Assembly: GCA_014381545.1 (NCBI GenBank)
Contig: JACNLL010000026.1
Location: 1 to 57,779, forward strand
DNA from: Candidatus Desulfaltia bathyphila
Lineage (GTDB): Bacteria; Desulfobacterota; Desulfobacteria; Desulfobacterales; ETH-SRB1
DNA: 57,779 bases
Direction: 5' to 3'
Shown here: positions 16,369-42,900 of the stretch, in pieces
How positions within the stretch are numbered: the stretch's first letter is position 1
How the letters are laid out: every line of letters starts with the position of its first letter
Notes under the pieces: generated by a model
The model's input: only the letters and a program-made list of their open reading frames with translations
Told to the model about the DNA's origin: nothing
Databases searched by the model: none
Translations under genes and position numbers: made by a program

Positions 16369-16450
16369 TTATATCTCCTAATTGATTTCAAGTAAGCTAA
16401 CCCTAAAGTTAAGGGGTCGCTTTGCTCCATAATTTTAGTCATTTGTAACT

Positions 16451-17478: not shown

Positions 17479-19080
17479 GTGAGCTTCATGTGTGATCGAA
17501 TTCAAAACAGGACAGGCTGGATAAGACATGTTTCTATCACTCCCCCAACTCTGCAAAATAATACTGCAGATGCTGATCGGCTTATAGGAGAATTAAAAAC
17601 CAGGCTTAATACCGATGCCGTTGATATAGACTTTTATTTATTAAAAAGATTGCCGGATCTTTTAAGAAAATGCGAATATAATGTCGACTGCATCCTTTTC
17701 AAGGATCGGAAAAGGTGGGTTGTTACAGGTATTACGCATTCGCAGGATACAAGTCCCACCTACGGCCTGGCCGTTGATCTCGGCACCACCAGGATTGTCT
17801 TGCGCCTTATAGACCTTTCAACAGGTTTGATTCCGGCCGAAACATCTTTTGACAATCCCCAAATATCCGTGGGACCCGACGTGTTGGCAAGGATACACTT
17901 TGCGGACCAGGATGGAGGGCTGAATAAGCTCAACAAAATGATTGTCGACAGCCTTAATCGAATGATCATAAGGTTGTGCGATTCCTGTAAAATAAAGCCA
18001 TATAACATATATTCCCTTTCTGTGGCAGGCAATACAGCCATGACCCATTTTTTCATGGGTCTTAGTCTTCACTGGATAGTACGTGAACCATATATTCCGG
18101 TTATAAACAGACCCGGGCTTGTAAAAGCAAAAGAGCTGGGAATTAAGGTTAACCCTATGGCCAGAGTTCTGATCTTTCCAAATGTCGGCAGCTATTTTGG
18201 TGGAGACCTGATTGCAGGAATTCTGTTTTCCGGCTTAAACAAAACAGAGGATACAGCCATTTTGGTTGACGTTGGAACAAATGCAGAGGTTGTATTAGGA
18301 AATAGAGACTGGCTTATTGCCTGTGCCGGAGCAGCAGGCCCTGCCCTGGAATGCGGGGTAACCGGGATGGGTATGATGGCGGGCCCGGGTGTGATTGATC
18401 AGGTTGTTATCGATCATGATACTTATAATATTCGATTGCATACCATTGACAACATGCCGCCCAGAGGGATTTGCGGTTCAGGCCTGATAGACCTTGCAGC
18501 CCAGCTTTTTCTTCGCGGTATGATCGACATCAAGGGCAAGTTGGTGCCGTCGATATGCGGCAACAGACTAAAGAAGAAAGATGGTGCCAGGCATCTTGTG
18601 GTGGCGCCTGCAAAAGATTCCGCCACGGGGTCTGACCTTACTATAAGCCAGGCAGACATTAACAGTCTTATCAGATCCAAGGCCGCCATGTATACAATAC
18701 TTGAGACTATTACATCTTCTGCTGGAATCTCTTTTAAGGATCTTTCTACATTTTATGTGGCAGGCGCCTTTGGATCTTTTATCAATCCCAGGTCGGCTAT
18801 ATCTATTGGAATGCTTCCTGATCTGCCGATTGACCGTTACAAATCCCTGGATAACAGCTCTATTGGCGGAGCAACCATGGTGCTTACATCGAGTGAGTGT
18901 TTAGATGAGATCGATAATATCAGAGACCGCATTACTTATCTTGAATTAAACGTAAATCAGGAATTCATGAACAGATTCAGCGCTGCCAGGTTTCTCCCCC
19001 ATACTGATTCCTCGCTTTTTCGCTCGGTGAAGACGTGTGCCCACATCTCCCCTCCACAAAAGCCTTCCGCGGCAGGATAA
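17479..19080 (+). CDS. ASKHA-fold reductive activator of corrinoid proteins (RACo/AcsV-like), lacking the N-terminal [2Fe-2S] domain
   Basis: GLAVDLGTT, NPQ..GPDVLARI, GNTAM, DVGTNAE, AAGPALE, GICGSG, AGAFG. Confidence 0.88.
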   Translation: MSFMCDRIQNRTGWIRHVSITPPTLQNNTADADRLIGELKTRLNTDAVDIDFYLLKRLPDLLRKCEYNVDCILFKDRKRWVVTGITHSQDTSPTYGLAVDLGTTRIVLRLIDLSTGLIPAETSFDNPQISVGPDVLARIHFADQDGGLNKLNKMIVDSLNRMIIRLCDSCKIKPYNIYSLSVAGNTAMTHFFMGLSLHWIVREPYIPVINRPGLVKAKELGIKVNPMARVLIFPNVGSYFGGDLIAGILFSGLNKTEDTAILVDVGTNAEVVLGNRDWLIACAGAAGPALECGVTGMGMMAGPGVIDQVVIDHDTYNIRLHTIDNMPPRGICGSGLIDLAAQLFLRGMIDIKGKLVPSICGNRLKKKDGARHLVVAPAKDSATGSDLTISQADINSLIRSKAAMYTILETITSSAGISFKDLSTFYVAGAFGSFINPRSAISIGMLPDLPIDRYKSLDNSSIGGATMVLTSSECLDEIDNIRDRITYLELNVNQEFMNRFSAARFLPHTDSSLFRSVKTCAHISPPQKPSAAG

Positions 19081-20760: not shown

Positions 20761-20918
20761 AATTGTGTGTCAAGAGAAAAAGCAACGAGTAACCAGCAAC
20801 GAGTAATATAAAAAAAATGAATAATTTATACTTGACTAAATGAAAGATACCATATTATAAAGATTTTAAATAAATATGATTCAGTAAATTATTGGAATAC
20901 AGAAAAAAGGAGGGAATT

Positions 20919-22682
20919 ATGGTTCTCGATCCAACCAAATATAAAGACTGGGAAATTGCCGAATATGCTGAAAAGAATATGAAAACGGTTTATCAATTGG
21001 GAGAGGAGCTTGGGTTGGAGAAAGATGAACTCCTTCCACATGGACATTATGTGGCAAAAGTCGATTTTGCAAAAGTTTTAAAACGCCTGAAAGATAAACC
21101 GGACGGTAAATATATTGATGTCACCGCCATTACTCCCACTCCGCTTGGAGAAGGCAAAAGCACTTCTGCCATGGGATTGGTGCCCGGGCTTGGCAAGCGT
21201 GGAAAACGGGTTATCGGCGCTATCCGTCAACCTTCCGGCGGTCCGACTATGAATATAAAGGGGAGCGCCGCAGGCGGCGGCCTGGCCCAGTGTATCCCTC
21301 TTACCCCGTTTTCATTAGGGCTTACAGGCGATATTAATGCCATTATGAATGCGCATAATCTGGCCATGGTAGCTTTGACAGCCAGAATGCAGCATGAAAA
21401 CAACTATTCTGATGAGATACTGGCGAAAAAGAATCTGAAACGGCTCGATATTAATCCCAAAAATGTGGAAATGGGGTGGATTATCGATTTTTGCGCTCAA
21501 TCGCTTCGGAATATTATCATAGGTCTTGGCGGAAAGATGGACGGTTTCCCCATGCAGTCTAAATTCGGGATTGCCGTAAGCTCGGAGATTATGGCTATTC
21601 TGGCGGTTGCTACCGACCTGAAAGATATGCGTGAACGGATGGGAAAGATCGTGGTTGCCTATAATAAAAAAGGCGATCCTGTTACTACAGCAGACCTTGA
21701 GGTTGACGGCGCCATGACTGCATGGATGGTGGAAGCGCTCAACCCGAATCTCCTCCAGACTTTAGAAGGGCAGCCGGTCTTTGTGCACGCAGGGCCGTTT
21801 GCAAATATCGCAATAGGCCAGTCATCTATTATAGCGGACAGGGTTGGATTAAAACTTGCAGACTACAATGTTACGGAAAGTGGTTTTGGAGCTGACATCG
21901 GGTTTGAAAAATTCTGGAACTTAAAGTGTCGTTTTAGTGGTTTGAAACCGCATTGCGCTGTAGTAGTGGCAACTATTCGCGCATTAAAATGTCATGGTGG
22001 CGGGCCTCCTCTGCCTCCGGGGAAACCAATGGATCCGGCTTATCTTGAAGAGCATGTGGACTGGGTGGAAAATGGTTGCGAAAATTTAACTCACCATATC
22101 CGAACCGTTAAAAAGGCGGGAATCAACCCTGTGGTCTGCATCAATTCCTTCTATACCGATACCAAAGATGAAATAGCAGCGGTTCGCAGGTCGGCAGAAG
22201 CCGCGGGCGCCCGCGTTGCCGTTTCCGAACATTGGCTTAAAGGTGGTGACGGGGCTCTAGAATTTGCCGATGCGGTTATCGATGCGTGTGAGGAGGAAAA
22301 TGACTTTCACTTTCTTTATGATCTTGAGACTCCATTGCGCAAGAAGATTGAATTGATTGCTAAAGAGGTATATGGCGCGGACGGTGTAAGTTATACCCAG
22401 GAAGCCGAAGCCAAGGCAAAGAGAATTGAACAGGATCCGGAACTGGCAAAATTGGGTACATGTATGGTCAAAACCCATCTAAGTCTTTCTCACGATCCGG
22501 TTAAAAAAGGTGTGCCGAAAGACTGGACACTCCCTGTTCGGGATATCTTGACGTATAAAGGGGCGGGATTCGTGGTGCCCGTGGCAGGGGCAATCAGCCT
22601 GATGCCGGGAACGGCTTCTGATCCGGCCTATCGGCGTATTGATGTTGATGTGGAGACCGGAAAAGTAAAGGGGTTGTTTTAA
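20919..22682 (+). CDS. fhs: Formate--tetrahydrofolate ligase
   Basis: [60 protein letters not shown]; AGGAGG RBS. Confidence 0.97.
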
Positions 22683-22695
22683 GGAAATTAAGATA

Positions 22696-23574
22696 ATGTC
22701 TGCAAAGATTATCAGCGGCACTGAAATCGCCAAACAGATACGGGAAGAACTGAAAAAAGAGATAGTGGAATTAAAGGAAAGACACGGTGTAACTCCGGGG
22801 TTGGCCACAGTTCTTGTGGGTGACGATCCAGCCTCCAAGGTATATGTGGGCCAAAAGGAGAAGTCGTGTAGCAATTTGGGGATATATTCGGAAAGAATCG
22901 ATTTGTCTGGAAATATCTCGGAGGAAAAGCTTCTCTTGCTAATTGAGAAATTGAACAAGGATTCACGGATTCACGGGATATTGGTTCAGCTCCCTCTTCC
23001 TAAACAGATTAATGAATCCCGCGTTATATGTGCCATTGATCCCGCTAAAGATGTGGATGGTTTCCATCCGGTAAATATAGGAAAGATGGTGATCGGGGAA
23101 AAGTGTTTTCTCCCCTGTACCCCTCATGGGATACTGGAGCTTCTGGCCCGTTCCGGTGTGCAAACAGAAGGCGCCGAGGTCGTAGTTGTGGGCAGGAGCA
23201 ACATTGTTGGGAAACCTGTCCTTAATCTGATGCTCCAAAAACGACCAGCAGGCAATGCAACGGTAACGTTGTGCCATACAAAAACAAAAGACTTGGCCTT
23301 CCACACAAAGCGAGCAGACATCCTGATAGTAGCTACCGGTTATCCCAAGACAGTTACAGGGGACATGGTAAAAGAGGGGGTTGTGGTTATCGATGTGGGG
23401 GTAAATCGGATAGGAAAGACTCCGGAAGGCAAAGCAATTTTAGTAGGCGACGTAGACTTTGAAAGTGTAAAAGAAAAAGCCGCCGCCATTACGCCGGTAC
23501 CCGGCGGCGTCGGCCCCATGACCATCGTCATGCTGATGAAGAATACGATACAAGCGGCCAAAAATACAATATAA
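22696..23574 (+). CDS. folD: Methylene-THF dehydrogenase/cyclohydrolase
   Basis: GILVQLPLP, KDVDGFHP, PCTP.G, GRSNIVGKP, TPVPGGVGPMT. Confidence 0.97.
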   Translation: MSAKIISGTEIAKQIREELKKEIVELKERHGVTPGLATVLVGDDPASKVYVGQKEKSCSNLGIYSERIDLSGNISEEKLLLLIEKLNKDSRIHGILVQLPLPKQINESRVICAIDPAKDVDGFHPVNIGKMVIGEKCFLPCTPHGILELLARSGVQTEGAEVVVVGRSNIVGKPVLNLMLQKRPAGNATVTLCHTKTKDLAFHTKRADILIVATGYPKTVTGDMVKEGVVVIDVGVNRIGKTPEGKAILVGDVDFESVKEKAAAITPVPGGVGPMTIVMLMKNTIQAAKNTI

Positions 23575-23661: not shown

Positions 23662-23738
23662 GAAAAACATGATAAAAAAGCTCCGATTATGACTGTTCAA
23701 AACCTAAGCAGCTATGAGCTAATCTTGGAGGATTGATT

Positions 23739-25697
23739 ATGGGATCAAGAAGATCTCCTGTTGGCGTGGCGCCCCGTTGCCTCGGTATTGATTGTGAGGG
23801 AAGCACCTGTGTTGCAAAGCAGGCCGAGGGCAAGGGGGTTGTTACCTACATCCAACGGATGAACAAAAGCGCTATTGAGCCTTGTCTTTTCGGTCAGGGG
23901 GGCACATGTTGTCGTAATTGCTCCTTTGGCCCGTGCATGATGATCGAAGATGTTCCGGAATCGATCGGGATCTGCGGGGCTACTCCTGCTACAGTGGCAG
24001 CGCGTAATTTTTGTCGTATGGTTGCTGCAGGGGCGTCTGCACACATGGATCACGCCCTTGAGACAGCAATGGCATTTCTGGCCGCGGCAAAAGGAGAATC
24101 CGAGTATAAAATCAAGGATGAAAAGAAGCTTCGTGCGCTGGCAGAGGTCTTTGAAATAAAGACAAAAGACCGGAACACAAAGGATATTGCTATTGAGCTG
24201 GGTGAAAAGGCATTAGCTGAATTCGGGAAGCAAGAAGGAGGCCTGTACTGCATACGTCGTGCACCTGAAAAGCGGCAAGAAGTATGGAAAAAAATCGGTG
24301 TTGCCCCGCGTGGTATACAGCGGGAAGTGGTAGAAATCATGCATCGGACCCATATGGGGACCGACCAGGATTATCGCAACCTGCTTCTTCAGGCCACCAG
24401 GTGTGCACTGGCAGACGGTTGGGGCGCATCCATGATATCTACCGAACTTCAGGACATCATGTTCGGAACTCCGGTTCCGACTCGGGCGGTGGTCAACCTT
24501 GGTGTTCTTTCCAAAGACGAGGTCAACGTGGTTGTACACGGTCATGAACCGATCCTGTCTGAAGCCATGGTGTTGGTTGCTGAGGATCCGGAGATGATAG
24601 AGGCAGCCAAAAAGGTGGGAGCAAAAGGGATCAATCTGGTCGGTGTCTGCTGTACCGGAAATGAGATCCTCATGCGTCACGGAATCCCTGTTGCAGGGAG
24701 CTTTATCCAGCAGGAGATCGTGCTTGCAACAGGCGCTGTAGAGGTAATGGTAGTAGATGTTCAATGCGTCATGCAGTCTCTTCCTGCTGTGGCCGGGTGT
24801 TTCCATACTGAGATGATTACCACGTCTGACCGGGCAAAAATTCCTGGCGCAAAACATATAGAGGTACATCATCACAATGCATCGGAAGCAGCCAGGCAGA
24901 TAGTCCAACGCGCTATTGACAGGTATCCGCAGCGAGGGGAGATCAATATCCCACACAATAAGATGGATGTGGTGGTCGGCTTCAGTCATGAGACAATCAA
25001 TCATATATTGGGTGGCGCCTTCCGTGCGTCGTACCGTCCCTTGAATGACAATATCATCAATGGTCGTATCCGGGGGGTCGGAGCAGTTGTAGGATGTGAC
25101 AGCGTGCGCGTACGTTCCGGGCACGTGCATACCACTGTGGTAAAAGAGTTGATAGCCAACAATGTCCTGGTTCTTGTCACAGGCTGTGCTGCTACTGCAT
25201 GTGGACGTGCAGGACTTTTAACGCCTGAGGCTGCAGAGCTGGCAGGGCCGGGCTTGAGAGAGGTATGTGAGACCGTGGGTATGCCCCCGGTATTGCACAT
25301 GGGATCATGTGTGGACAACAGCCGGATCCTGATCGCTGCGACAGAGATTGTCCGTGAGGGGGGGCTTGGCGACGATATTTACCAGGTGCCTGCGGCCGGT
25401 TGTGCGCCGGAGTGGATGAGTGAAAAGGCGATATCTATTGGACATTATTTTGTTGCAAGTGGCGTTTTTGTTGTATTTGGTCGCACCTTTCCAACAACTG
25501 GAAGCAAGGTTGTGACCGATTTTCTGTTCAGTGAAATGGAAGAGCTGTACGGCGGAATGTGGGCGGTTGAATCCGATCCAATAAAGATGGCGCAACTGAT
25601 GATCGAGCGTATAGAGAAAGGGCGAGATGCCCTCGGTATCCAGGAGAAGAAGAAAAGAGTCCTCTATGACATGGCCATGAGGCGTGAGCTGGAATAA
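23739..25697 (+). CDS. cooS: Anaerobic Ni-CO dehydrogenase catalytic subunit
   Basis: PCLFG..GTCCRNC..GPC (D/B clusters), VHGHEP, GVCCTGNE, VDVQC, TGCAA, HMGSCVDNSR, SEKA. Confidence 0.96.
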   Translation: MGSRRSPVGVAPRCLGIDCEGSTCVAKQAEGKGVVTYIQRMNKSAIEPCLFGQGGTCCRNCSFGPCMMIEDVPESIGICGATPATVAARNFCRMVAAGASAHMDHALETAMAFLAAAKGESEYKIKDEKKLRALAEVFEIKTKDRNTKDIAIELGEKALAEFGKQEGGLYCIRRAPEKRQEVWKKIGVAPRGIQREVVEIMHRTHMGTDQDYRNLLLQATRCALADGWGASMISTELQDIMFGTPVPTRAVVNLGVLSKDEVNVVVHGHEPILSEAMVLVAEDPEMIEAAKKVGAKGINLVGVCCTGNEILMRHGIPVAGSFIQQEIVLATGAVEVMVVDVQCVMQSLPAVAGCFHTEMITTSDRAKIPGAKHIEVHHHNASEAARQIVQRAIDRYPQRGEINIPHNKMDVVVGFSHETINHILGGAFRASYRPLNDNIINGRIRGVGAVVGCDSVRVRSGHVHTTVVKELIANNVLVLVTGCAATACGRAGLLTPEAAELAGPGLREVCETVGMPPVLHMGSCVDNSRILIAATEIVREGGLGDDIYQVPAAGCAPEWMSEKAISIGHYFVASGVFVVFGRTFPTTGSKVVTDFLFSEMEELYGGMWAVESDPIKMAQLMIERIEKGRDALGIQEKKKRVLYDMAMRRELE

Positions 25698-25717: not shown

Positions 25718-28700
25718 ATGAAAGAAAGTAAAACGACAAAAAAAGGTTCCGTACTCGTTGTGGGCGGCGGGGTGGCCGGCGTTCAGGCGGCGCTCGACCT
25801 TGCCGATCTGGGTTACTATGTCTACCTTGTCGAAAAATCAGCTTCGATCGGCGGGGCTATGGCCCGGCTCGACAAGACCTTTCCCACAAATGACTGTTCC
25901 ATTTGTATCCTGGCGCCCAAGCTGGTTGAGGCCGGCAGGTCACCGAACATAAAGATTATAACAAAAGCGACTCTGGCATCCGTGGACGGAGAGGCGGGCA
26001 ACTTCACTGCCGAAGTTCACTGTGAGCCCCGATACATCAACGAAGAACTGTGTACTGCCTGCGGCATGTGCACCATGTACTGTCCCATAGTTATTCCTGA
26101 CGCTTACAATGAGGGCTTTACCGTAACAAAAAATCCTCATATGGACTATCCTCAGGCTGTTCCTGCGAGTTTCTATATCGATCCAAAGGAGTGCCTTTTT
26201 GTCAACAATCAGACCTGCCGGATATGCGTATCTACCTGTCAGGCCCAGGCGATCGACCTTGATGCAAAGGAGGAGACGCTTGACTTAGCCGTAGGCGCTG
26301 TAATACTTGCCCCGGGTTTCGGCTCGCTGAGTGAAGATATACTGAGTCGTTTTGGTTACGGTTCCTACCCCAATGTACTTACCGGTTTCGAGTTTGAAAG
26401 GATGATGTGCGCTTCTGGTCCATCCAACGGGGAGATCCTTCGGCCATCAGATGGAAAGCATCCAAAACGTATTGCCATTTTACAGTGCGTCGGTTCAAGA
26501 GATGTAACGTGCGGCAACGGGTACTGTTCATCGGTTTGCTGTATGTATGCCGTAAAGGAGGCCACGGTCGTGAAAGAACATGACCCTGATCTTGAAATTG
26601 TTATCTTCTATATGGAGATGCGGACTCAAGGTAAGGGATTTGACGCTGCTCGCCAAAGGGCCGAAAAAGAGTATGGTCTTCGATTTGTCCGGGCAAGGGT
26701 TGCCGGTGTCCGGGAAAACGGCAAAAACTTAAGGATTCCTTATGTAAATGAGAAGGGAGAGCACATAGCCGAAGATTTTGATATGGTGATCCTGGCTCAG
26801 GGCCTTGAGTCACCCACTGATGCTGAACCACTGGCATCTGCCGCTGGAATCGATCTCAATCACTATGATTTTTGCAAGACGGGTAACTTTTCACCGCTTG
26901 AGACAACCAGGCCGGGGATTTTTGTAGCCGGTGCTTTCCAGGGCCCAAAGGATATCCCGGATAGTGTAACTCAGGCATGTGGCGCGGCCGCTCTTGCCGC
27001 AGAGCTCCTGCGGGATGTTCGTGGAACCAGTGCAGTGAAGAAAGAATATCCGGCTGAAATCGAGATAGAAGCAAAACCGCGGATCGGTGTGCTTGTCTGT
27101 CACTGCGGAATCAACATCGGTGGCGTGGTGGATGTGCCGGCAGTGAAGGAGTATGCCTCTACACTCGATAATGTAGTATTTTGTGATAGAAATCCGTATA
27201 GTTGCTCGCAGGATACGCAAGTTGCAATCAGAGAAAAGATCAAAGAATATAAATTGAACAGGATAGTGGTTGCTGCCTGTACCCCCCGTACTCATGAACC
27301 CCTATTCCAGGAAACCCTGAGAGATGCAGGCTTGAACCGTTCTTTATTTGAAATGGTTAATATAAGGGATCAGTGTTCATGGGTGCATATGCATGAACCG
27401 GCAGAAGCAACGGCCAAGGCTAAAGAGCTTGTAAGGATGGCAGTGGCAAAGGCAAACCTCCTTAAGCCCCTTGTTGAACAGACCGTTCCGGTTATCCCAA
27501 AGGCACTTGTTGTCGGTGGGGGTGTCTCCGGTATGACCGCAGCTTTGAGTATTGCGGAGCAGGGGTTTGAGTGTTTTCTTGTAGAAAAAGCCGATCGACT
27601 TGGCGGAAATCTCGACAATCTTGTTTTTACCCTTTCCGGGGACGATCCGCATGCACTTCTCGAGCAACTCAAAAAGAAGATAGAGCAAGAACCACTTATA
27701 CATGCCTATACTAATTCAACTGTTGAAAACATATCCGGGTATGTGGGGAATTTTACCACGTCAATCAACTCCGGCTCTAAAACTGAGACTGTGGAACATG
27801 GCGTTATAATTATAGCCACCGGCGGCAGGCCATATCAGCCTACACAATATCTTTATGGAAAATCAAAGCAAGTGCTCACACAGCTTGAATTGGAAAAGAT
27901 AATCTCTTCTGATGTTGAGGTAACAAAGATACAAGAAATCGTTATGATTCAATGCGTGGGATCACGTGGACAAGACCTTGCCTATTGCAGCAAGATATGC
28001 TGCATGCAGGCGGTTAAAAACGCCTTGAAGATACTGGAGTTAAATTCACGTGCCACTGTATATATTCTTTACAGGGACATGCGAACCTATGGGTTTGCGG
28101 AAGACTACTACAGAAAGGCCAGAGAAAAAGGTGTAATCTTCATCCACTATGAAAAGGATGCTCTCCCTGAAGTTACCGAAGAAGGCGGAAAGGTTAAGAT
28201 TGAATTTTTGGATCCCTTGCTTGATGAAAAGGTAGCCATTAAACCGGATTTGCTGGCATTGAGCGTAGGGATTGTGCCACATGATGTGGAACAACTGGCA
28301 AAGGATCTCAAGGTTCCTCTTACCGGCGATAAGTTTTTCCTGGAAGCTCATGCCAAGCTTCGCCCGGTAGAATTCTCTGTAAGCGGGGTCTACCTGTGTG
28401 GGCTGGCGCATTCCCCAAAACCTATCGATGAATCGATTGCACAGGCAAAGGCTGCGGCATCAAAAGCCGGCGCCTCGCTGGCAAAGGGATTTGTATCGGT
28501 GGAACCGATTGTCTCGGTAGTTAACACCGATGTCTGTATCGGCTGCGGCATCTGTGAGAGTCTCTGCCCATATAGTGCGATCAGGATAATCAGGGTGGGA
28601 AAAAGGAAAAAAGCCGAGACGATTTCAGCTTCATGCAAGGGGTGCGGTGTATGCGCCTCACATTGCCCAACATTTGCCATATCAATGGGGGGCTTCACTA

Positions 28701-28744
28701 ATGAAGAGATAATGGCCCAGATAAGGGCGTTTGGTGGAAATTAG
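25718..28744 (+). CDS. hdrA: Heterodisulfide reductase subunit A, double FAD-domain form (1008 aa)
   Basis: [16 protein letters not shown], two QCVGSR..YCS..CC motifs, [27 protein letters not shown]-terminal 2x[4Fe-4S]. Confidence 0.93.
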
Positions 28745-28755
28745 GAGATAAAACT

Positions 28756-29544
28756 ATGAAATCACAAGTTACGCTTACCACTCTTTACAAGATGAAGGAA
28801 AAAGGTGAAAAAATAGTTGCTCTTACAGCCTATGATTATCCATTTGCAAAGATAGTTAATGATTCAGGAGTACATATGATCCTTGTAGGGGATTCAGTAG
28901 GAATGGTGATTCAAGGAAAATCGAGCACCCTGCCGGTTACAATGGATGAAATGATATACCATACCTGCATTGTGTCAAAAGCCGCCGGAAATGCAATGAT
29001 TGTCGGTGACATGCCGTTTATGTCTTACCAGACAAGCATAGAAGATGCAATTGCCAATGCAGGACGTTTTCTTAAAGAAGCAGGCGCTGCTGCAGTCAAG
29101 CTGGAGGGAGGAAGAGCCGTCAGTGAAACAATAAAAGCAATTTCAGGAGCTGGAATTCCGGTACAGGCCCACATAGGCCTTACACCGCAATCTGTTCACC
29201 AGATGGGAGGCTACAGGGTTCAGCGCAATGAAGAACAGCTCATGGCAGATGCCCTTGAGATAGAATCCGCCGGAGCCTTTTCCGTTGTTTTAGAAGGTAT
29301 CCCATCCGAAATTTCAGAAAAGATAACTAAAGCGCTTGCCATACCGACAATAGGAATAGGAGCGGGTCCACATTGCGACGGGCAGATACTTGTGCTGCAC
29401 GACCTTTTAGGGTTAAATGACAGGCATCTGCCAAAATTCGTAAAGCAATACGCCAATCTGCTTGATGATGCAAAAACCGGAATAAAACAGTATATAGAGG
29501 AAGTGCAGGCAGGTAAATTTCCCGCCAAAAAGCATTGTTATTGA
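28756..29544 (+). CDS. panB: 3-methyl-2-oxobutanoate (ketopantoate) hydroxymethyltransferase
   Basis: [50 protein letters not shown]. Confidence 0.96.
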
Positions 29545-29547
29545 AAT

Positions 29548-30426
29548 ATGAAACCATCTTTTGCCATTATAGGATGCGGAAAGGTCGGCACTGCGCTGGG
29601 GAAATTTCTTGCAAAGGCCGGCTATAAACCAGCCGGGTTTGCCAGTAAAAGCCTTTCGTCTGCCGAGAGGGCTGCTGAAATCAGCGGTTCTGATAATTGC
29701 AGCCGGATTCCCTGGGAAATAACAAGAAAGGCGGATATCGTTTTTATAACAACACCTGACAGCGCTATAGCCGACACGTGCAACAGTATCTCCCTTCATT
29801 CCGGTTTCTGTAAAAATGGTGTGGTACTGCACTGCAGCGGAGCGCTCCCTTCAACCATTCTATCATCTGTAAAAGAGTGTGGCGCTTTTGCGGGGTCAAT
29901 GCATCCTCTCCAGACTTTTGCTTCAGTTGAGATTGAAAAAAATCCTTTTCAGGATATAATAATTTCCCTGGAAGGTGAAAAGGAAGCTGTCAGTATAGCA
30001 AGGAAAATCGCAACCGACCTTGGGGCAACCTGCTTTACAATACAAACAGAGGCCAAAACACTCTATCATGCTTCGGCAGTGGCAGCATCAAACTACCTTG
30101 TAACAGTGCTCGGCCTTTCCTTAAAGCTTATTGAAGCGGCAGGGATATCAGGCGCAGATGCTTTAAAAGCGCTAAAACCACTAATTGAAGGGACGCTTTC
30201 CAACATAGAAAAAGCCGGGATTGACAGAGCGCTTACCGGCCCCATTGTCAGAGGAGATATTGAAACCGTAAAAAAACATTTGGTCCAGATAGGTTTAAAA
30301 ACGCCCGACCTTCTCGACCTTTACAAGACACTGGGCTTTCATACAGTCGATATTGCAATGGCAGGAGGCGGTCTTTCAGAATCATCAGCTCAAAAGTTGA
30401 AAAAGATTACATCGCCTGATTCTTAA
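29548..30426 (+). CDS. Rossmann-like + DUF2520 protein (PanG-type ketopantoate reductase)
   Basis: IIGCGKVG, VLHCSGA, SMHPLQTF, LYHASAVAASNY, ALTGPIVRGD; adjacent to panB. Confidence 0.82.
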   Translation: MKPSFAIIGCGKVGTALGKFLAKAGYKPAGFASKSLSSAERAAEISGSDNCSRIPWEITRKADIVFITTPDSAIADTCNSISLHSGFCKNGVVLHCSGALPSTILSSVKECGAFAGSMHPLQTFASVEIEKNPFQDIIISLEGEKEAVSIARKIATDLGATCFTIQTEAKTLYHASAVAASNYLVTVLGLSLKLIEAAGISGADALKALKPLIEGTLSNIEKAGIDRALTGPIVRGDIETVKKHLVQIGLKTPDLLDLYKTLGFHTVDIAMAGGGLSESSAQKLKKITSPDS

Positions 30427-30453
30427 TGAACTTAGTTCGCTTCGCTCACAAAT

Positions 30454-30566
30454 TAGTCGAGTGGTCGAATAGTCGAGTGGAGAAATAGTCGAGCAGGAAT
30501 TAGTCAACCACTTGACCACTCGACCAATCAGCTACTCGACGACTCGACTATTTAACTACTCGACTA
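30454..30566. repeat. Inverted octamer array element (TAGTCGAG)n ... (CTCGACTA)n
   Basis: Five units of tagtcgag/tggtcgaa followed by ~7 reverse-complement units. Confidence 0.8.
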
Positions 30567-30583
30567 AAGTCAAGGAAAATAAA

Positions 30584-31375
30584 ATGTCTCAAGATTTATT
30601 TAAGCCGAAGATACTCGGTTTTTTATGTAACTGGTGCTGTTATACAGCGGCAGATTCAGCAGGGGTGGCAAGATACCAGTATCCGCCAAACATCAGAGTA
30701 ATCAGAGTAATGTGTTCAGGAAGGATTGATCCTGTCTTTATTCTTGAGGCCTTCTCCTGTGGAGCGGATGGAGTGTTTGTTGGTGGATGCCATCTCGGAG
30801 AATGTCATTACCAGACCGGAAATTATGAGGCCTTGGTAGTTGCGGCGTTAACACGCAAGTTATTGGAAAAAGCCGGACTCTCAACGGAAAGATTTCTTCT
30901 TGAATGGGCATCCGCTGCAGAGGGACCTCGCTTTGTAGAGATTATAACGAATTTCACAAATAAGATCAAAGAACTGGGCCCATTAGGAAAGACGGAAAAG
31001 AAAGATAAAGATGAATTAAGATTAAAAATATTAGCAGCAAAGTCAGCGGCAAAGCAGATGAAATTACGAACCAGGTTTGGAAATCTTGCTAAGGAACTAC
31101 GCAAGGAAGGTGATTATTCCGACAAGATCATTCATGATAAGCTGGGTCAGAAAGTAGCCGGCGTTATAAATACTGAAATTGCAAGACATGAAACATTCCT
31201 TCGGATCCAAAAAGATGGCCCGGTTTCTTTTAATGATCTGGAAAAAAAGATCGGCGCATCCCTTTCAGAAATCGAAAAATATGTCTCTACATTCAGCAAA
31301 AAAGGGTTAATAACGGAATCTGATGGGCAACTATCAGTAACCAGCAACGAGCAACAAGTAACCAGTAACCAGTAA
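30584..31375 (+). CDS. mvhD: MvhD/FlpD [2Fe-2S] subunit with a ~110-aa C-terminal extension
   Basis: GFLCNWCCY.AAD.AG, RVMCSGRID, GADGV..GGCHLGECHY, WASAAEG; ATG at 30584. Confidence 0.88.
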   Translation: MSQDLFKPKILGFLCNWCCYTAADSAGVARYQYPPNIRVIRVMCSGRIDPVFILEAFSCGADGVFVGGCHLGECHYQTGNYEALVVAALTRKLLEKAGLSTERFLLEWASAAEGPRFVEIITNFTNKIKELGPLGKTEKKDKDELRLKILAAKSAAKQMKLRTRFGNLAKELRKEGDYSDKIIHDKLGQKVAGVINTEIARHETFLRIQKDGPVSFNDLEKKIGASLSEIEKYVSTFSKKGLITESDGQLSVTSNEQQVTSNQ

Positions 31376-31382
31376 AAAAATT

Positions 31383-31961
31383 ATGGCAATAGACAGAGAT
31401 GAGTTAGAACCTCGATTCAAATTTGAAGTGGCGGAACTTCCGGAAGGTAAACATGTCAAGGAATGCTACGCGTGCGGCAGTTGTACTGGAACATGTCCGG
31501 TCAGCCAGGTGATCCCGGAATTCGATCCGCGAAAGATCCTTCATATGATCATGCTCGGCCTGAAAAACCGTCTCCTTTCATCCGATTTGATCTGGTATTG
31601 CACAGAATGCCAAACCTGTGAGTTCGTGTGTCCGCAGGATGTGAGCTTCAGCGATGTGATCAAGGCGCTGAGGATCTTGGCCTTGCAGGACGGCTATGTG
31701 GATGCGGAAAGATTGGGTGAAATGGGAAAATTGGCTGTTGTAGACGAAAAACGTTGCGTAGCCTGCCTCACGTGTGTTCGGGTGTGCCCTTTTGGTGTTC
31801 CCTATGTGGGGGATGATAGTGTCGCCCATATTGAACCGGTAAAGTGTGTGGCCTGCGGGATCTGTGTGTCCGAGTGCCCGGCCAAGGCTATTGAATTACA
31901 GACATCTCAAGATGTGAGGCGGTTTGCCTCGTGTGAATTTTTGCTCTCGAGGGAATTATGA
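31383..31961 (+). CDS. hdrC: HdrC-like Fe-S protein fused to a C-terminal 2x[4Fe-4S] ferredoxin
   Basis: CYACGSCTGTCP, PRKI, IWYCTECQTC..VCPQDV; then CVACLTCVRVCP and CVACGICVSECPAKAI. Confidence 0.8.
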   Translation: MAIDRDELEPRFKFEVAELPEGKHVKECYACGSCTGTCPVSQVIPEFDPRKILHMIMLGLKNRLLSSDLIWYCTECQTCEFVCPQDVSFSDVIKALRILALQDGYVDAERLGEMGKLAVVDEKRCVACLTCVRVCPFGVPYVGDDSVAHIEPVKCVACGICVSECPAKAIELQTSQDVRRFASCEFLLSREL

Positions 31962-32377
31962 ATGATGTGAACCAACCGGATATTGTGGCGTTTTGCTGCC
32001 ATTATACCGCCTATGCATGCTCCCAGGATTTGCAGAACTTACCTCAGTTGGGGTTTCCGGAGAATGTGCGACTGGAAATACTGCCCTGCAGCGGCAGGAT
32101 CAGCATAACCAGGCTATTAAAGGCCTTTGAACAGGGCGCAGACGGAATTTACGTTGCCGGATGCAAGGACGATACCTGCCACAATGTAAGAGGGAGTCAG
32201 ATTGCAAAAAAAAGAGTCGATTACGTGAAAGATGTTTTCGACCAATTGAATATAGAACCTGAACGCATAGAGATGTATATGATTTCTCGCGAGCCGAATC
32301 GCGGATTTATTGAAGTAGCCGAAGAGATGACTATGCGGATTAAAAAGTTAGGATCAAGTCCATTAAAGGGGAAATAG
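31958..32377 (+). CDS. mvhD: Second MvhD/FlpD subunit (divergent)
   Basis: VAFCCHY, LPCSGRI, AFEQGADGIYVAGC..TCH..GS, IEPERIEM; ATGA overlap with the upstream gene. Confidence 0.82.
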   Translation: MNDVNQPDIVAFCCHYTAYACSQDLQNLPQLGFPENVRLEILPCSGRISITRLLKAFEQGADGIYVAGCKDDTCHNVRGSQIAKKRVDYVKDVFDQLNIEPERIEMYMISREPNRGFIEVAEEMTMRIKKLGSSPLKGK

Positions 32378-32380
32378 AAT

Positions 32381-33049
32381 ATGATTGTCGGACAGAGAAA
32401 ACCGATCCAGGAAATTATCGGAATGCTGAAAGGGATTAAAAAGATATTAATCCTGGGATGTAGCGGATGTGTGAGCGTCTGTTCCGCCGGAGGAGAAAAG
32501 GAGGTCGAGATCCTTGCCTTGATCCTTCGGATTGACCGCAAAAAAAAAGGAGAACCTGTTGAAACAATGGAAAAGACTCTTGCCCGGCAGTGTGATACGG
32601 AATATCTGGAAGAATTAAAAGGTGAGGCGGGCAACTACGATGCCATTCTATCGATGGCCTGTGGCGTCGGGGTCAATTATTTAGCTGATATGTACCCCAC
32701 AACTCTGGTTTTCCCAGCGCTTAATACCAGTTTTATGGGCGTTTCAGAGGAACAGGGGGTGTGGTCGGAACGGTGCGCGGGCTGCGGCGACTGTGTGCTC
32801 GACAGGACTGGGGGGCTTTGTCCCATTGCCCGGTGTTCAAAACGTTTATTCAATGGCCCATGTGGAGGATCACAGAACGGGAAATGCGAGATTGACCCGA
32901 ATGTCGCCTGCGTGTGGCAGTTGATATATGATCGTTTGAAGGGATTAAATCAATTGGAAAAACTGAAGGAGATCTTTCCCATCAAGGATTGGTCCAGCAG
33001 TCTACACGGCGGTCCCAGAAAGATCGTCAGGGAGGATCTGAAGCTATGA
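32381..33049 (+). CDS. metV: Methylene-THF reductase small subunit (MTHFR_C)
   Basis: GCSGCVSVC..GG, RQCD.EY, MACGVG, CAGCGDC, CPIARCSK..FNGPCGG, CVWQLIY. Confidence 0.9.
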   Translation: MIVGQRKPIQEIIGMLKGIKKILILGCSGCVSVCSAGGEKEVEILALILRIDRKKKGEPVETMEKTLARQCDTEYLEELKGEAGNYDAILSMACGVGVNYLADMYPTTLVFPALNTSFMGVSEEQGVWSERCAGCGDCVLDRTGGLCPIARCSKRLFNGPCGGSQNGKCEIDPNVACVWQLIYDRLKGLNQLEKLKEIFPIKDWSSSLHGGPRKIVREDLKL

Positions 33050-33975
33050 AATCAGGCAGTAACTTGGAAAAGGTGTTAACATCCGGGCAGTTTGCCGTAA
33101 CAGGAGAACTGGGTCCTCCCAAAAATGCCGATGCTGAAGTCATTCGTACCAAGGCAAGACTTCTAAAAGGTTGCGTTGACGCGGTCAATATTACTGACTG
33201 TCAAACCGCTATTGTCAGGATGTCGAGTATCGCGTCATCCGTTATACTGATGGAGGAAGGATTAGAGCCCGTCACGCAGATGACCTGTAGGGACCGGAAT
33301 CGTATTGCCATTCAGAGCGATCTCCTTGGCGCTTCTGCTCTGGGAATGAAGAATTTACTCTGTCTCACCGGTGACCACCACAAGTTCGGAAACCACCCAA
33401 ACGCTGTCGGTGTCTTTGATATGGATTCTATTCAGCTCCTGCAGATGGTAAAAAACATGCGCGACGAAAAGGTCTTTCAATGCGGAGAAGAACTCAAAGG
33501 GACGGAACCGACGTTCTTTCTGGGAGCTGCCGCCAATCCCTTTGCAGATCCGTTTGAATTCAGGGCTCTCCGCCTGGCAAAAAAGGTCGTCGCAGGCGCA
33601 CAGTTTGTTCAGACACAGCTTGTGTATAACCTCGAAAGGTTTACCGCATGGATGCAGGCAGTCAGGGCTTTAGGGGTCCATGAGCAATGTTACATAATGG
33701 CGGGAGTGACTCCTCCCAAATCGATCGGAATGGCCAAGTACATGAAAAATAACGTGCCGGGCCTTGATGTCCCTGACGAGGTGATAGTCCGTCTTAAGGG
33801 CGCCAGGGATGCCAAAAAGGATGTGCAGGAAGAGGGAATCAATATTTGTGTAGATATTATTAACAGGGTAAAAGAGATAGAAGGTGTGGCCGGTGTACAT
33901 ATCATGGCGATAGAATGGGAGAGCGCCGTACCGGAGATAGCGAAGCGAGCCGACTTGCTTCCGAGGCCGGGATGA
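33046..33975 (+). CDS. metF: Methylene-THF reductase
   Basis: VTGELGPPK, NITD.QTA.VRMSS, TCRDRNRIA.QSD, LTGDH, FVQTQ, GVHIM. Confidence 0.93.
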   Translation: MKSGSNLEKVLTSGQFAVTGELGPPKNADAEVIRTKARLLKGCVDAVNITDCQTAIVRMSSIASSVILMEEGLEPVTQMTCRDRNRIAIQSDLLGASALGMKNLLCLTGDHHKFGNHPNAVGVFDMDSIQLLQMVKNMRDEKVFQCGEELKGTEPTFFLGAAANPFADPFEFRALRLAKKVVAGAQFVQTQLVYNLERFTAWMQAVRALGVHEQCYIMAGVTPPKSIGMAKYMKNNVPGLDVPDEVIVRLKGARDAKKDVQEEGINICVDIINRVKEIEGVAGVHIMAIEWESAVPEIAKRADLLPRPG

Positions 33976-33984
33976 TAAAGCGTG

Positions 33985-34161
33985 GAGTGCCTAAAGTGAG
34001 CTAAAGTATATTAAAGTGCCTAAAGTTAAGGTATTCTGCTTATTTTAAAGTAACAAATGATAAATGAGCTAAAGTTTCCTAAATTTTGCTATTTATAATA
34101 TAAAATCAGCTAACGCTGGCAAGCGCTTTCCTTAACTTTAGGCACTTTAGCTCACTTAACT
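33985..34161. repeat. Inverted 9/10-mer array element between metF and acsD
   Basis: TAAAGTGCCTAAAGTTAAGG (34012-34031) is the exact reverse complement of CCTTAACTTTAGGCACTTTA (34130-34149); extra ctaaagt units on both sides. Confidence 0.8.
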
Positions 34162-34178
34162 CAGAGGGGGTAAATAAA

Positions 34179-39911: not shown

Positions 39912-39941
39912 GATTGATGATTGTCAATCAACAATCACAAA

Positions 39942-42900
39942 ATGGCTAAGTTAGAAATAAAAATTGATGGCCAAACATTATGGGTTGATTCTGGCACAAT
40001 AATATTGGATGCCGCGCTCAAGGCAGGGGTTTTCATCCCAACACTGTGTTATATTCCGGGCAAAACCGCAGAACACCCTTGCGGAATATGTGTTGTTGAA
40101 GTCGATGGGAGAGAAGAATTAGTTCACGCCTGTTCCACGCTTGTGGAAAGCAACATGGTGGTAACTTCTCGAAGTAATCGGGTTATAAAAGCAAGACAAC
40201 AGGTTTTAGAACGGATGCTGTCGAAACATTATGGCGATTGTATTGCGCCATGTTCTCTGACATGTCCAGCCCATATCAATATCCAGGGTTATCTCAGCCT
40301 GATCTCACAGGGTGAGTTTATAGAGGCCCTGAAACTTATCAAAGAAAAGAATCCACTCCCTCTTTCTGTTGGAAGGGTCTGCCCACATTTTTGTGAAACT
40401 CTATGTCGCCGTATCCTGGTAGACGAATGTCTCTCCATTAATCATCTAAAGCGATTTGTAGCAGATTTTGCTGCCGATCATAAAGATGCGCATGCTTTGC
40501 CTCCTCCACCATCCTCCGGACACAGAGTTGCTGTGATCGGCGGGGGGCCTGCCGGACTTTCCGCTGCTTATTATCTGTCCTATATGGGTCATGAGGTAAC
40601 TATATTTGAGGCAATGTCTCAACTGGGCGGAATGCTTCGTTATGGGATCCCGGAATTTCGTCTTCCCAAAAAAATCGTTGACAAAGAGATAGAAAGTATA
40701 CTCAGAGCAGGCATCCGTTCACGAACCAGAAAGAGGCTGGGAGTTGACTTTACTATTAAGAGCCTGAAGGAAAGCGGTTTTGAGGCTATTTTTCTTGGCA
40801 TTGGCGCCTGGCGGAATCAAAAAATGGGTATTGAGGGAGAGGAGTTGGAGGGGGTTCTTTCGGGCCCTGAATTTCTTAAGAGCATCGGCATGGGCTTGAT
40901 GCCGTCCGTAGGTCGAAGGGTAGCCGTAATAGGAGGGATAGATACTGCCGTAGATACGGCCAGGACCTGTGTGAGAATAGACAACGTAGATGAAGTTGTT
41001 GTTATATATCAACGTTCAATGATGGAGATGCCGGCAAGCCATCGAGAAGTCATTGAAGCCGAAAAAGAGGGTGTCAAGTTTATCTTTATGACAGGGCTTA
41101 CAAAGATAAAGAAAGAGAAAGACTTTCTTGAACTTGAAACAGTCCGTATGAAGTTGAGTAGACCCGACAAGAGGGGAAAGCGCCGGCCGATTCCTGATCC
41201 TGGATCCGAAAAAACCCGTGAAACAGATACAGTAATTGTGGCAACCGGACAGACCCCTGACCTTTCCTGGATGGAACTACCGGATGAAGGGGTAAAACCG
41301 CGTGTCCTTTCCGGTGGAACTATTATTGCCGGTCCTCAAACTTTTCAGACTTCGGAGAAAGAAGTTTTTGCAGGAGGGGACGCTGTACGCGGCCCAAGAA
41401 CGGTTATCCAGGCAATCACCGGGGGGAGAAAGGCGGCCAAAGCAATACATCTATATCTTAAGAAAAAACCGCTGTACTACACAAAACGGCAACTCAATTT
41501 CACAAAGGGCAAAAAATTCGAGGATGTTGATCTGCATAACTTCGAAAATGTTCCAATACGCCTGGGAGAAAAGATGCCTGTGCGGGCGCCGGAAAGACGC
41601 ACCCTGGATTTTGATGAAATAGAATTGGGATTTACTGAGGAGACCGCGCTTCGGGAGTCCAAACGATGCCTGCAGTGTGGATGTACAGCTCTTTCCAAAT
41701 GTAAGTTGCGTGAATTATCCATAGAATACGGAGTAAGGTTTCGTATATCCAGAATGCTAAAACGCAGGCAATACGAGATCGACAGCCGTCATCCTTTTAT
41801 TATTATTGATCCCAATAAGTGTATATTTTGCCAGCGTTGCAAGAATAGCTGTGAATATGGCGCATTGGAGCTGACCGGGACAAATTTTGACAATAACGGA
41901 CTCCCTGAACAAATCTCCATAATTATTAATGAAAAGTGCGTTTCTTGCGGCGCTTGCGTAGATGAATGTCCGGCAGGCGGTCTGGCAAAAAAATCGATCT
42001 GCTTTCCTGTTGGCCCTCATGAAATCAAAAAAGTCAAAACAGTCTGCCCGTTCTGCGGTTGCGGATGCACCATTGACTTGACCATGAAAGGAGACTCAAT
42101 CATTGAAGTAACCTCTGATCCTGAGGATAGCCTCAATTTCGGGCAGATCTGTGTTAAGGGGAGGTTTGGAATCAATTTTGTTCGTCATCCGGATCGATTA
42201 AAAAAACCGCTTGTCCGAAAAAGGGAATATTTTGAGGAGGTGAGCTGGGAAGATGCGATCTCTCTTGTTGCACAAAAATTTCTGGAAATAAGGGATAATG
42301 ATCCTGATAGTCTGGCCGGTTTGAGTTCGGCAAAGTGCACCAATGAAGAAAATTACCTCATGCAGAAATTTATGCGCACAGTGATCGGCACAAATAATAT
42401 TGACAACTGCGCGCGGCTCTGTCACGCATCCACAGTGGCCGGTTTGGCCGCATCGTTTGGAAGCGGGGCCATGACCAACTCTATAGCCGATTTCAAAAAG
42501 GCTGATGTAATCCTCCTTACAGGAAGCAATCCCACTGAAAATCATCCTGCCATAGCCCTTGGTATGATAAAAGCCATACAAGAAAACAAGACAAAACTGA
42601 TTGTAGTCGATCCCCGTGAGATAGAAATAGTGCAGTATGCCGAAATCTGGCTGCGTCCAAAGCCCGGCACGGATATGGTCTGGTTAAACGGCATGATGAA
42701 CGTAATTATAGATGAAGATCTATATGATATCTCTTATGTGGCCGAAAGGACGGAGAACTTTAATGCTTTGAAAGAGACGGTGATGCAATACAACCCGGAA
42801 TTTGTTGAACAGGTGACCGGCATACCCGCAAAAGATCTTATCAGGGCTGCGCATCTTTATGCCAAAGCTGAGCGAGGCTCTATTGCATATGCCATGGGCA

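Follow-up and report, generated by a model that had tools for sequence, protein, structure and literature searches.

The 57,779-nucleotide stretch of DNA analyzed here (the window; contig JACNLL010000026.1 of Candidatus Desulfaltia bathyphila, which is contig C73 of a 2.07-Mb genome with 97% completeness) carries on its plus strand a complete Wood-Ljungdahl carbon-pathway operon. Our subject is a set of six plus-strand genes within this operon that appears to encode a methylene-tetrahydrofolate (methylene-THF) reductase of the heterodisulfide reductase (Hdr) type without an HdrB subunit. The set comprises hdrA (25718-28744), whose two-module product of 1,008 amino acids was recognized by alignment to solved HdrA; a long mvhD (30584-31375; 263 amino acids; PF02662, E = 1.2e-51), whose open reading frame (ORF) extends over 30512-31375 with a likely ATG at 30584; a gene for an HdrC-ferredoxin fusion (HdrC/Fd; 31383-31961; 192 amino acids), recognized by alignment to solved HdrC and to ferredoxin; a short mvhD (31958-32377; 139 amino acids; PF02662, E = 2.7e-36); metV (32381-33049; PF12225, E = 2.5e-39); and metF (likely ATG at 33046, end at 33975; PF02219, E = 1e-41). 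MetF thus adjoins MetV, and two MvhD genes are encoded alongside hdrA and metVF. An earlier note on this DNA had placed the same six genes within 25718-33975, with the correct outer coordinates, and had overlooked panB, a gene with a DUF2520 domain, and a 157-bp spacer in the same interval. It had also described the genes as tightly packed with ATGA overlaps. Two such overlaps exist, between hdrC/Fd and the short mvhD at 31958 and between metV and metF at 33046, but spacing within the hdrA-metF block is uneven, as panB, the DUF2520 gene, and the spacer interrupt it.

The HdrA protein was compared with the solved HdrAs of Methanothermococcus thermolithotrophicus (5ODC) and Methanothermobacter (8RVU) and consists of two unequal HdrA units in one chain, with two GxGxxG/flavin adenine dinucleotide (FAD) modules. 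Residues 4 to 378 align with the thioredoxin-reductase domain and the inserted ferredoxin domain of solved HdrA, residues 451 to 605 align with its N-terminal domain (the cluster domain being placed at 451 to 590), and residues 832 to 1004 align with its C-terminal ferredoxin domain. Unit 1 (~1 to 440) has a thioredoxin reductase-like FAD domain into which a 2x[4Fe-4S] ferredoxin domain is inserted, C60 and C63 as counterparts of Cys194 and Cys197, and E227 and K280 as equivalents of E356 and K409 (M. thermolithotrophicus numbering), a pair quoted as the mark of a bifurcating flavin (Kremp et al., PMC9430772). Unit 2 has the HdrA N-terminal cluster domain, a second thioredoxin reductase-like FAD domain that lacks the insert and the Cys197 motif but has E726 and K767, and a C-terminal 2x[4Fe-4S] ferredoxin domain (~930 to 990); complementary loss has been described for fused HdrAs, including the Moorella enzyme (Chadwick et al., PMC9012536). 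The features expected of an electron-bifurcating HdrA, i.e., the E/K signature, the Cys197 ligand, the inserted ferredoxin domain, and the N- and C-terminal cluster domains, were therefore all found.

In an alignment of 59 HdrAs of the same size class, all members from window-type loci keep every one of these ligands. In 23 of 23 relatives with an interrupted hdrA ORF, the interruption is a TGA (selenocysteine [Sec]) codon that falls precisely on the position of Cys63, which points to selection on this flavin-site ligand; the window protein has Cys there (codon 25904-25906). The domain scan recognized no NAD(P)H site in the window HdrA, and the only redox partners recognizable for the module are MetFV and the ferredoxin-docking domain.

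The HdrC/Fd protein combines two halves. Residues 23 to 106 align to residues 29 to 110 of solved HdrC (E ~1e-18), with no match beyond them, and residues 117 to 185 form a clostridial-type 2x[4Fe-4S] ferredoxin; the protein lacks both a CCG domain and the C-terminal region that follows the clusters in canonical HdrC. All 16 cluster cysteines, the number needed to hold four [4Fe-4S] clusters, are kept without change in the 12 orthologues compared, which come from 9 families. The two MvhDs share 30% identity and belong to separate clades. The MvhD domain of the long one is 57% identical to solved MvhD (5odh_D) over 134 aligned columns of a structural alignment, and it is followed by a C-terminal tail of ~120 residues predicted to be helical and winged-helix-like (AlphaFold model; mean predicted local distance difference test [pLDDT] score of 80). 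Its Cys69 (C93 of the longer ORF; codon 30788-30790; motif GGCHLGEC) is a TGA/Sec codon in one close relative checked. The short MvhD has four invariant cysteines (C14, C44, C69, and C74), and MetV has 13; no solved structure of any MetV relative was found in the PDB. A chance or pseudogene origin of the set was rejected because the ORFs are all intact and the cofactor ligands are all kept across families. The genome itself still appears to use Sec, as one in-frame TGA codon occurs in the large-subunit gene of a [NiFeSe]-type hydrogenase (G000:C32:8400-9887) and one in a paralogue of the long MvhD gene (G000:C66:25183-25875).

A genome-wide profile search returned eight PF02754 (CCG) matches in six ORFs, none of them on the window contig, which agrees with the earlier note that no hdrB lies in the window. 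The search for hdrB and hdrD elsewhere that the note had proposed found one true HdrB (C71:7462-8328; 288 amino acids with two CCG domains). Its neighbors in a complete cluster of its own are a NarI-like/HdrC-like protein of 596 amino acids, another two-module HdrA that shares 48% identity with the window HdrA, an MvhD, and Flx-like Fe-S and NAD(P)H/FAD subunits. Of the other CCG proteins in the genome, one is HdrD-like and encoded next to etfBA, one is GlcF/HdrD-like, two are HmeD/TmcB-like (with a cytochrome c3 next to one of them), and one is a DsrK next to DsrM; a custom hidden Markov model (HMM) adds one DsrK-like protein to the CCG set. Because the only true hdrB belongs to a complete cluster and the remaining CCG proteins are of other types, the genome has no orphan hdrB. 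No hydrogenase genes were found among the window ORFs scanned, as the note had also stated. The single PF00374 match in the genome is on C32, at a [NiFeSe]-type locus that also has a small-subunit gene and hyp maturation genes and no mvhD or hdr genes; no genome-wide search for [FeFe] hydrogenases was made. A third Hdr-like cluster, likewise without HdrB, is present at G000:C66:22313-29594 (L211 4314-11595) and encodes an HdrA-like protein (955 amino acids), a long MvhD with Sec, an HdrC-like protein (155 amino acids), NuoE, NuoF, and a protein like NuoG or the N terminus of HydA. It shares the hdrA-mvhD-hdrC order of the window and has an NADH module where the window has MetVF.

To place the set in context, we surveyed 401 evenly sampled genomes of the phylum, representing 254 genera. 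MetV is encoded in 299 of these genomes, and the HdrC/Fd fusion is present at full length in 39, spanning 25 of the 254 genera and 17 families. The fusion occurs in 13 of 25 genomes of the window's family and in 4 of 9 of its genus, and it was found in none of the 11 sampled genomes from other families of the same order. Long MvhD-like proteins are encoded in 226 of the 401 genomes at E <= 1e-45, too widely to test their co-occurrence with the hdrC/Fd-mvhD(short)-metV trio. We then annotated 73 MetV-centered loci from 67 genomes with phmmer seeds and an iterated CCG HMM; these loci come from the top of the ranking and are hence biased toward window-like MetVs. The gene order fhs-folD-cooS-hdrA-mvhD(long)-hdrC/Fd-mvhD-metV-metF-acsDBC(E), without panB and the DUF2520 gene, recurs in 10 of the 73 loci, from 9 families, so the metV-metF synteny survey that the earlier note had suggested recovers the HdrB-less order repeatedly. 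A CCG protein is present in 28 loci, which have either the Moorella-like order hdrC-hdrB-hdrA-mvhD-metV-metF or a variant with an HdrA-GltD-HdrA protein of ~1,500 amino acids. Full HdrC/Fd occurs in 19 loci. In the 15 of these with a single system, the iterated CCG HMM detected no CCG protein; the other 4 (L037, L038, L041, and L042) are compound loci with two to three metVF copies, one copy being Moorella-like with a separate HdrC-HdrB-HdrA set. Numerous additional loci carry hdrA-mvhD-metV-metF without a neighboring hdrCB; loci that are HdrB-less in a looser sense are therefore frequent.

Among named species-representative genomes, 584 stretches encode an HdrC/Fd relative. The best 80, picked by HdrC/Fd likeness, are mostly from Desulfobulbales (Desulfocapsa, Candidatus Electrothrix, Desulfobulbaceae, and Desulfurivibrionaceae) and also include the window's own lineage, labeled as metagenome-assembled genomes of "Desulfobacterales bacterium"; none of these 80 loci has a CCG protein. 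The published gene numbering of Thermosulfurimonas dismutans (fhs, TDIS_0997; folD, 0998; metF, 1006; acsE, 1009; fdh, 1010) is compatible with the window layout, and the available text of that genome paper does not discuss Hdr genes (PMC4911364). Judged from gene content and order, the HdrB-less layout is a conserved lineage rather than a one-off, and it is common in sulfate-reducing, sulfur-disproportionating, and cable bacteria. The earlier note had asked whether this architecture might already be common and characterized: with 39 of 401 genomes it is common, and no characterization was found in the literature searched.

The survey also shows that the set is built from two sub-modules. In most Desulfobulbales loci, hdrC/Fd-mvhD(short)-metV forms an operon of its own with neither hdrA nor metF within 10 kb; the trio is flanked by purB and lptA in a complete Candidatus Electrothrix genome, and the stand-alone arrangement accounts for 60 of the 152 MetV genes tallied. 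The other cluster of these genomes reads folD-cooS-metF::acsD-acsB-acsC, in some cases a gene for formate dehydrogenase with a GltD-like module (FDH-GltD), and then hdrA(Sec)-mvhD(long, Sec); the FDH-GltD genes of Desulfocapsa lie immediately before hdrA-mvhD(long). Because the trio and hdrA-mvhD(long) sit apart in these genomes, the set comes apart as two pieces, [hdrA-mvhD(long)] and [hdrC/Fd-mvhD(short)-metV]. A sister genus (g3) within the window's family has hdrC/Fd and the short mvhD joined in one ORF of 328 to 333 amino acids, a Rosetta-stone fusion. The loci of this genus (L110 to L114) read hdrA-mvhD(long)-[hdrC/Fd::mvhD]-[HdrC-like::GltD, ~600 amino acids]-metV-[second HdrA, ~865 amino acids]-mvhD-metF and thus have an NAD(P)H-binding module inserted. 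Many other carriers, including Candidatus Electrothrix, encode a MetF::AcsD fusion of 880 to 1,050 amino acids with a linker of ~300 to 370 amino acids (e.g., L073 4074-7052 on the minus strand, L090 4294-6972 on the minus strand, and L207 4391-7033 on the plus strand). In the window, metF and acsD, the latter encoding the small subunit of the corrinoid Fe-S protein, are separate genes.

Trees were built of MetV (quick IQ-TREE) and of MvhD domains (FastTree). One MetV clade (Shimodaira-Hasegawa approximate likelihood ratio test support of 96) contains all 14 window-type, 7 sister-genus, and 18 trio rows, together with 5 rows from compound loci and 4 unclassified rows. The MvhD tree has three groups, namely, the short MvhDs (40 rows), the long MvhDs (31 rows; support of 0.998), and Moorella-type MvhDs (64 rows). 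Of the multimer models that the earlier note had called for, the pair of MetV and short MvhD was examined, each protein from a 35-row alignment. The predicted complex scored 0.61, and the best of three controls scored 0.00; at least 97% of contacts are shared between runs, and the partner pLDDT is no lower than 83. For comparison, the mark was reached by 116 of the 157 complexes with solved structures and by 2 of the 215 mismatched pairs, counts that are a rough guide because our own alignments were used. As a prediction, the model supports binding between MetV and the short MvhD.

The general kind of system is known. HdrCBA-MvhD-MetVF is the Hdr-type, or fourth type, of methylene-THF reductase, reported from Moorella thermoacetica and Sporomusa ovata (Mock et al. 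2014, as cited in Kremp, Roth & Muller 2022, PMC9430772). The window set resembles these enzymes in MetF and MetV, in an MvhD beside a large HdrA with two complementary thioredoxin reductase-like FAD modules (Moorella HdrA likewise being two fused HdrA domains [Chadwick et al., PMC9012536]), in an HdrC-type di-cluster protein, and in the placement of the genes in or next to Wood-Ljungdahl genes. It differs from them in having no HdrB, in an HdrC that is fused to an extra 2x[4Fe-4S] ferredoxin and encoded after hdrA-mvhD rather than before, and in a second, divergent MvhD, with the first MvhD bearing a winged-helix-like tail. The window HdrA also keeps the inserted ferredoxin domain, reportedly absent in S. 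ovata and M. thermoacetica from the C-terminal HdrA part (PMC9430772), and has no GltD NAD(P)H insert of the kind present in the Moorella protein. Of the traits that define the Hdr type, we therefore found MetF with an adjacent MetV, MvhD with hdrA and metVF, and an enlarged HdrA with two FAD modules, and we found no HdrB with two CCG domains in the operon.

Other relatives share parts of the set. The methanogen HdrABC-MvhAGD and formate dehydrogenase-Hdr complexes (5ODC, 8RVU, and 7BKB) have the same HdrA domains and ligands, including the Cys197 equivalent (Sec in relatives), and share with the set MvhD (57% identity for the long one) and the HdrC di-cluster core. In contrast to the methanogen homodimer, one window chain holds two unequal HdrA units, and the window set has MetVF attached in place of HdrB, the heterodisulfide site, and the Mvh hydrogenase. 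The C71 cluster, which is of the FlxABCD-HdrABC-like kind, is alike in its two-module HdrA and its MvhD/FlxD-type protein but also contains HdrB, an HdrC-like protein of the membrane type, and Flx-like subunits that bind NAD(P)H, and it lacks MetVF. The type II enzyme of Clostridium ljungdahlii, which is MetVF only (PMC8515935 and PMC8760232), shares the MetV-MetF core; in the window, genes for HdrC/Fd and MvhD come before metV, and hdrA accompanies them. Assignment to the type II class was rejected because Hdr and Mvh genes accompany metVF. The kind of enzyme is thus known; no description of an HdrB-less hdrA-mvhD-hdrC/Fd-mvhD-metVF set was found in the full-text literature searched, supplements and key subscription reviews aside.

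We favor the interpretation, at a probability of roughly 0.55, that the six genes encode one HdrB-less Hdr-type methylene-THF reductase in which electrons pass between HdrA and MetF through Fe-S proteins. The earlier note had proposed such a link between the HdrA flavins and MetVF with no disulfide-reducing subunit, and the proposal is supported by the missing CCG protein in all 15 single-system loci and all 80 best loci, by the loss of the HdrC tail, and by the retention of the HdrA ligands and E/K signature. The segment from HdrC/Fd through short MvhD and MetV to MetF is the firm part of the chain, backed as it is by the fused genes, the operon of the trio, and the predicted contact; it goes together with a fully equipped two-module HdrA and an MvhD of canonical appearance. 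Electrons would run there from the four [4Fe-4S] clusters of HdrC/Fd to the [2Fe-2S] cluster of the short MvhD, to MetV, and to the flavin of MetF. The analysis shows the gene content, the cofactor ligands, their conservation, the lack of HdrB, and the sub-modules, whereas we infer the single complex, the order of the wire, bifurcation, and a third partner.

The HdrB-less variant is probably electron bifurcating with ferredoxin, and ferredoxin is the likely low-potential partner because unit 1 of HdrA has the inserted ferredoxin domain, the Cys197 equivalent, and the E/K signature. Unit 1 would then be the bifurcating unit, with its inserted ferredoxin domain serving ferredoxin. The high-potential electron would enter the HdrC-like half of HdrC/Fd, as it enters HdrC in methanogens, and continue to MetFV instead of HdrB, such that methylene-THF and MetFV would take the place of CoM-S-S-CoB and HdrB as the high-potential arm. 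The long MvhD with its winged-helix tail could form the port for a third donor or acceptor, for which the candidates are the NAD(P)H- and formate-linked FDH-GltD fusion of the operon or NAD(P)H. The full scheme, in which MetFV has replaced the heterodisulfide and HdrB as acceptor, HdrC/Fd-MvhD-MetV is the adaptor wire, and the donor (formate or NAD(P)H via FDH-GltD) docks at the winged-helix MvhD, is a tentative proposal that we consider less likely than not.

Several observations weigh against this interpretation. The module has neither an NAD(P)H-binding domain nor a hydrogenase, so bifurcation among three partners needs an outside donor. The trio stands alone in many Desulfobulbales loci and could work without HdrA, and a true HdrB is encoded elsewhere in the genome and might be shared in trans. 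The long MvhDs are sister to the Moorella-type MvhDs encoded between hdrA and metV (in HdrB-containing and other locus types), and the four compound loci have mvhD(long)-hdrC/Fd-metV-metF and no short MvhD; these two findings would fit another wire order, in which the HdrC site of HdrA is empty and HdrB has not been replaced. Both trees are, moreover, midpoint rooted.

The separate trio operons raise the alternative of two enzymes in one operon, i.e., a self-contained, nonbifurcating HdrC/Fd-MvhD(short)-MetV-MetF that ferredoxin would feed via the ferredoxin domain of HdrC/Fd and an HdrA-MvhD(long) pair serving another step, for example with FDH-GltD, behind whose genes the pair directly lies in Desulfocapsa. 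MetVF alone from C. ljungdahlii has been reported to depend on reduced ferredoxin (PMC8515935 and PMC8760232). Nevertheless, the six genes are contiguous and in the same order between cooS and acsD in 9 families, and genomes with a separate trio keep hdrA-mvhD(long) within the Wood-Ljungdahl cluster. Established potentials leave a gap of ~250 mV between ferredoxin and the folate couple, which ferredoxin-only reduction would waste while offering no oxidative direction to acetate-oxidizing sulfate reducers. The folate couple is placed at -200 mV (as cited in PMC9430772). We regard the two-enzyme arrangement as unlikely. The same six proteins might also form a linear wire of HdrA, long MvhD, HdrC/Fd, short MvhD, MetV, and MetF. 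MetFV would then occupy the MvhD port, its presumed place in Moorella, HdrA would have an empty HdrC site, and a third substrate would react directly at an HdrA flavin or be absent. Gene order would equal wire order, the 64 MvhDs flanked by hdrA and metV form the sister group of the long MvhDs (31 rows; 0.998), loci L037, L038, L041, and L042 dispense with the short MvhD, and cluster C66 of the same genome repeats hdrA-mvhD(long, Sec) followed by an hdrC-like gene and nuoEFG-like genes. We consider this order quite improbable, as the HdrC-like half keeps an HdrC-type sequence, the extra winged-helix-like domain of the long MvhD is suited to docking another partner, and the window HdrA has no recognizable NAD(P)H site. 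HdrC is reportedly the HdrA-bound relay in solved Hdr complexes.

A canonical Moorella/Sporomusa-type complex that draws HdrB in trans from C71 is very improbable in our assessment, even though the genome has one true HdrB and hdrABC are often not colocated with metFV-mvhD (PMC6085437). The C71 hdrB already has its own HdrA, MvhD, and Flx-like subunits, the other CCG proteins of the genome are HdrD-, DsrK-, Tmc-, and Etf-linked types, a ferredoxin domain replaces the canonical C-terminal part of HdrC in the window protein, and the HdrB-less state is kept across 17 families.

The operon extends to both sides of the six genes. Upstream of hdrA on the plus strand lie genes for an acsV-like activase (17479-19080), fhs (20892-22682), folD (22696-23574), and cooS for the Ni-containing carbon monoxide dehydrogenase (CODH; 23733-25697; PF03063); downstream of metF, also on the plus strand, acsD, acsB, acsC, and acsE follow in that order before a gene for a formate dehydrogenase of 1,376 amino acids with an N-terminal GltD/NfnB-like module (39921-44051). 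The N terminus of this protein (~650 amino acids) holds a 2Fe-2S/GltD-like NAD(P)H-FAD module and a ferredoxin and is the only NAD(P)H-binding module of the operon, making the FDH-GltD fusion a candidate partner of the Hdr module. Its gene has no in-frame stop, and the same gene type closes the cluster in several other families and, by gene numbering, in T. dismutans. The earlier note had suggested CODH as the low-potential partner because cooS directly precedes hdrA. As cooS is the only Prismane/CODH-family gene in the genome, it is most simply the CODH subunit of the CODH/acetyl-CoA synthase (CODH/ACS) encoded downstream, and the adjacency is not conserved, given that in Candidatus Electrothrix and Desulfocapsa cooS is followed by metF::acsD, with hdrA-mvhD elsewhere in the cluster. 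A specific CODH-HdrA link is therefore not supported beyond the use of ferredoxin by both CODH/ACS and HdrA.

The genes interrupting the block are panB, for ketopantoate hydroxymethyltransferase (28756-29544, plus strand; PF02548), and an oxidoreductase gene with Rossmann-like and DUF2520 domains (29548-30426, plus strand), identified from domain matches and the literature, in which DUF2520 proteins are tied to the FTT1388 reductase (PMC4572677). The DUF2520 gene probably encodes a PanG-type ketopantoate reductase; it was inserted jointly with panB. The pair lies between hdrA and the long mvhD in the window and in genome G006 (L109), lies downstream of the long mvhD in G003 (L108 10162-11862), and is absent from the locus in G002 and in all other families. 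Contigs of relatives from sequencing run X19 join hdrA straight to mvhD (28734>30598) or have mvhD followed by panB (31372>28761); no sequencing run listed as containing the locus is recorded as RNA, and two runs labeled "RNA?" were judged probably to be DNA and matched the window at 90 to 99%, as relatives. These comparisons indicate that the pair is a movable insertion and that panB is a lineage-specific addition outside the conserved module. PanB uses methylene-THF, which may explain why panB lodged at the hdrA-mvhD locus.

The 157-bp spacer behind the pair (30427-30583), recognized by repeat inspection, consists of TAGTCGAG-type repeats with an 8-nucleotide period followed by their complements, forming long imperfect inverted repeats with arms of up to 43 nucleotides that are 72 to 88% complementary. 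The spacer behind metF (33976-34178) is also repeat rich, with perfect inverted repeats of 20 and 14 nucleotides that are 98 to 136 nucleotides apart. Elsewhere in the window, purH is split into two adjoining ORFs (15118-17128, minus strand) of 225 and 416 amino acids, which cover model positions 1 to 191 and 199 to 511, respectively.

Even in the enzyme of Moorella and Sporomusa, what serves as second substrate and what HdrBC do are described as still unknown (PMC9430772). A widespread natural form that lacks HdrB, retains a fully equipped bifurcation-type HdrA, and appears wired to MetFV by HdrC/Fd and MvhD narrows the possible mechanisms, and Thermosulfurimonas and Desulfocapsa offer cultured sources for its biochemistry. 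The finding is relevant to how abundant bacteria of marine sediments, cable bacteria among them, fix carbon and oxidize acetate. If MetFV is indeed the acceptor of a bifurcating HdrA, reduced ferredoxin would be made, or consumed in reverse, during the folate step, and the complex would be the long-sought coupling site of the Wood-Ljungdahl pathway's methyl branch in sulfate reducers, sulfur disproportionators, and cable bacteria.

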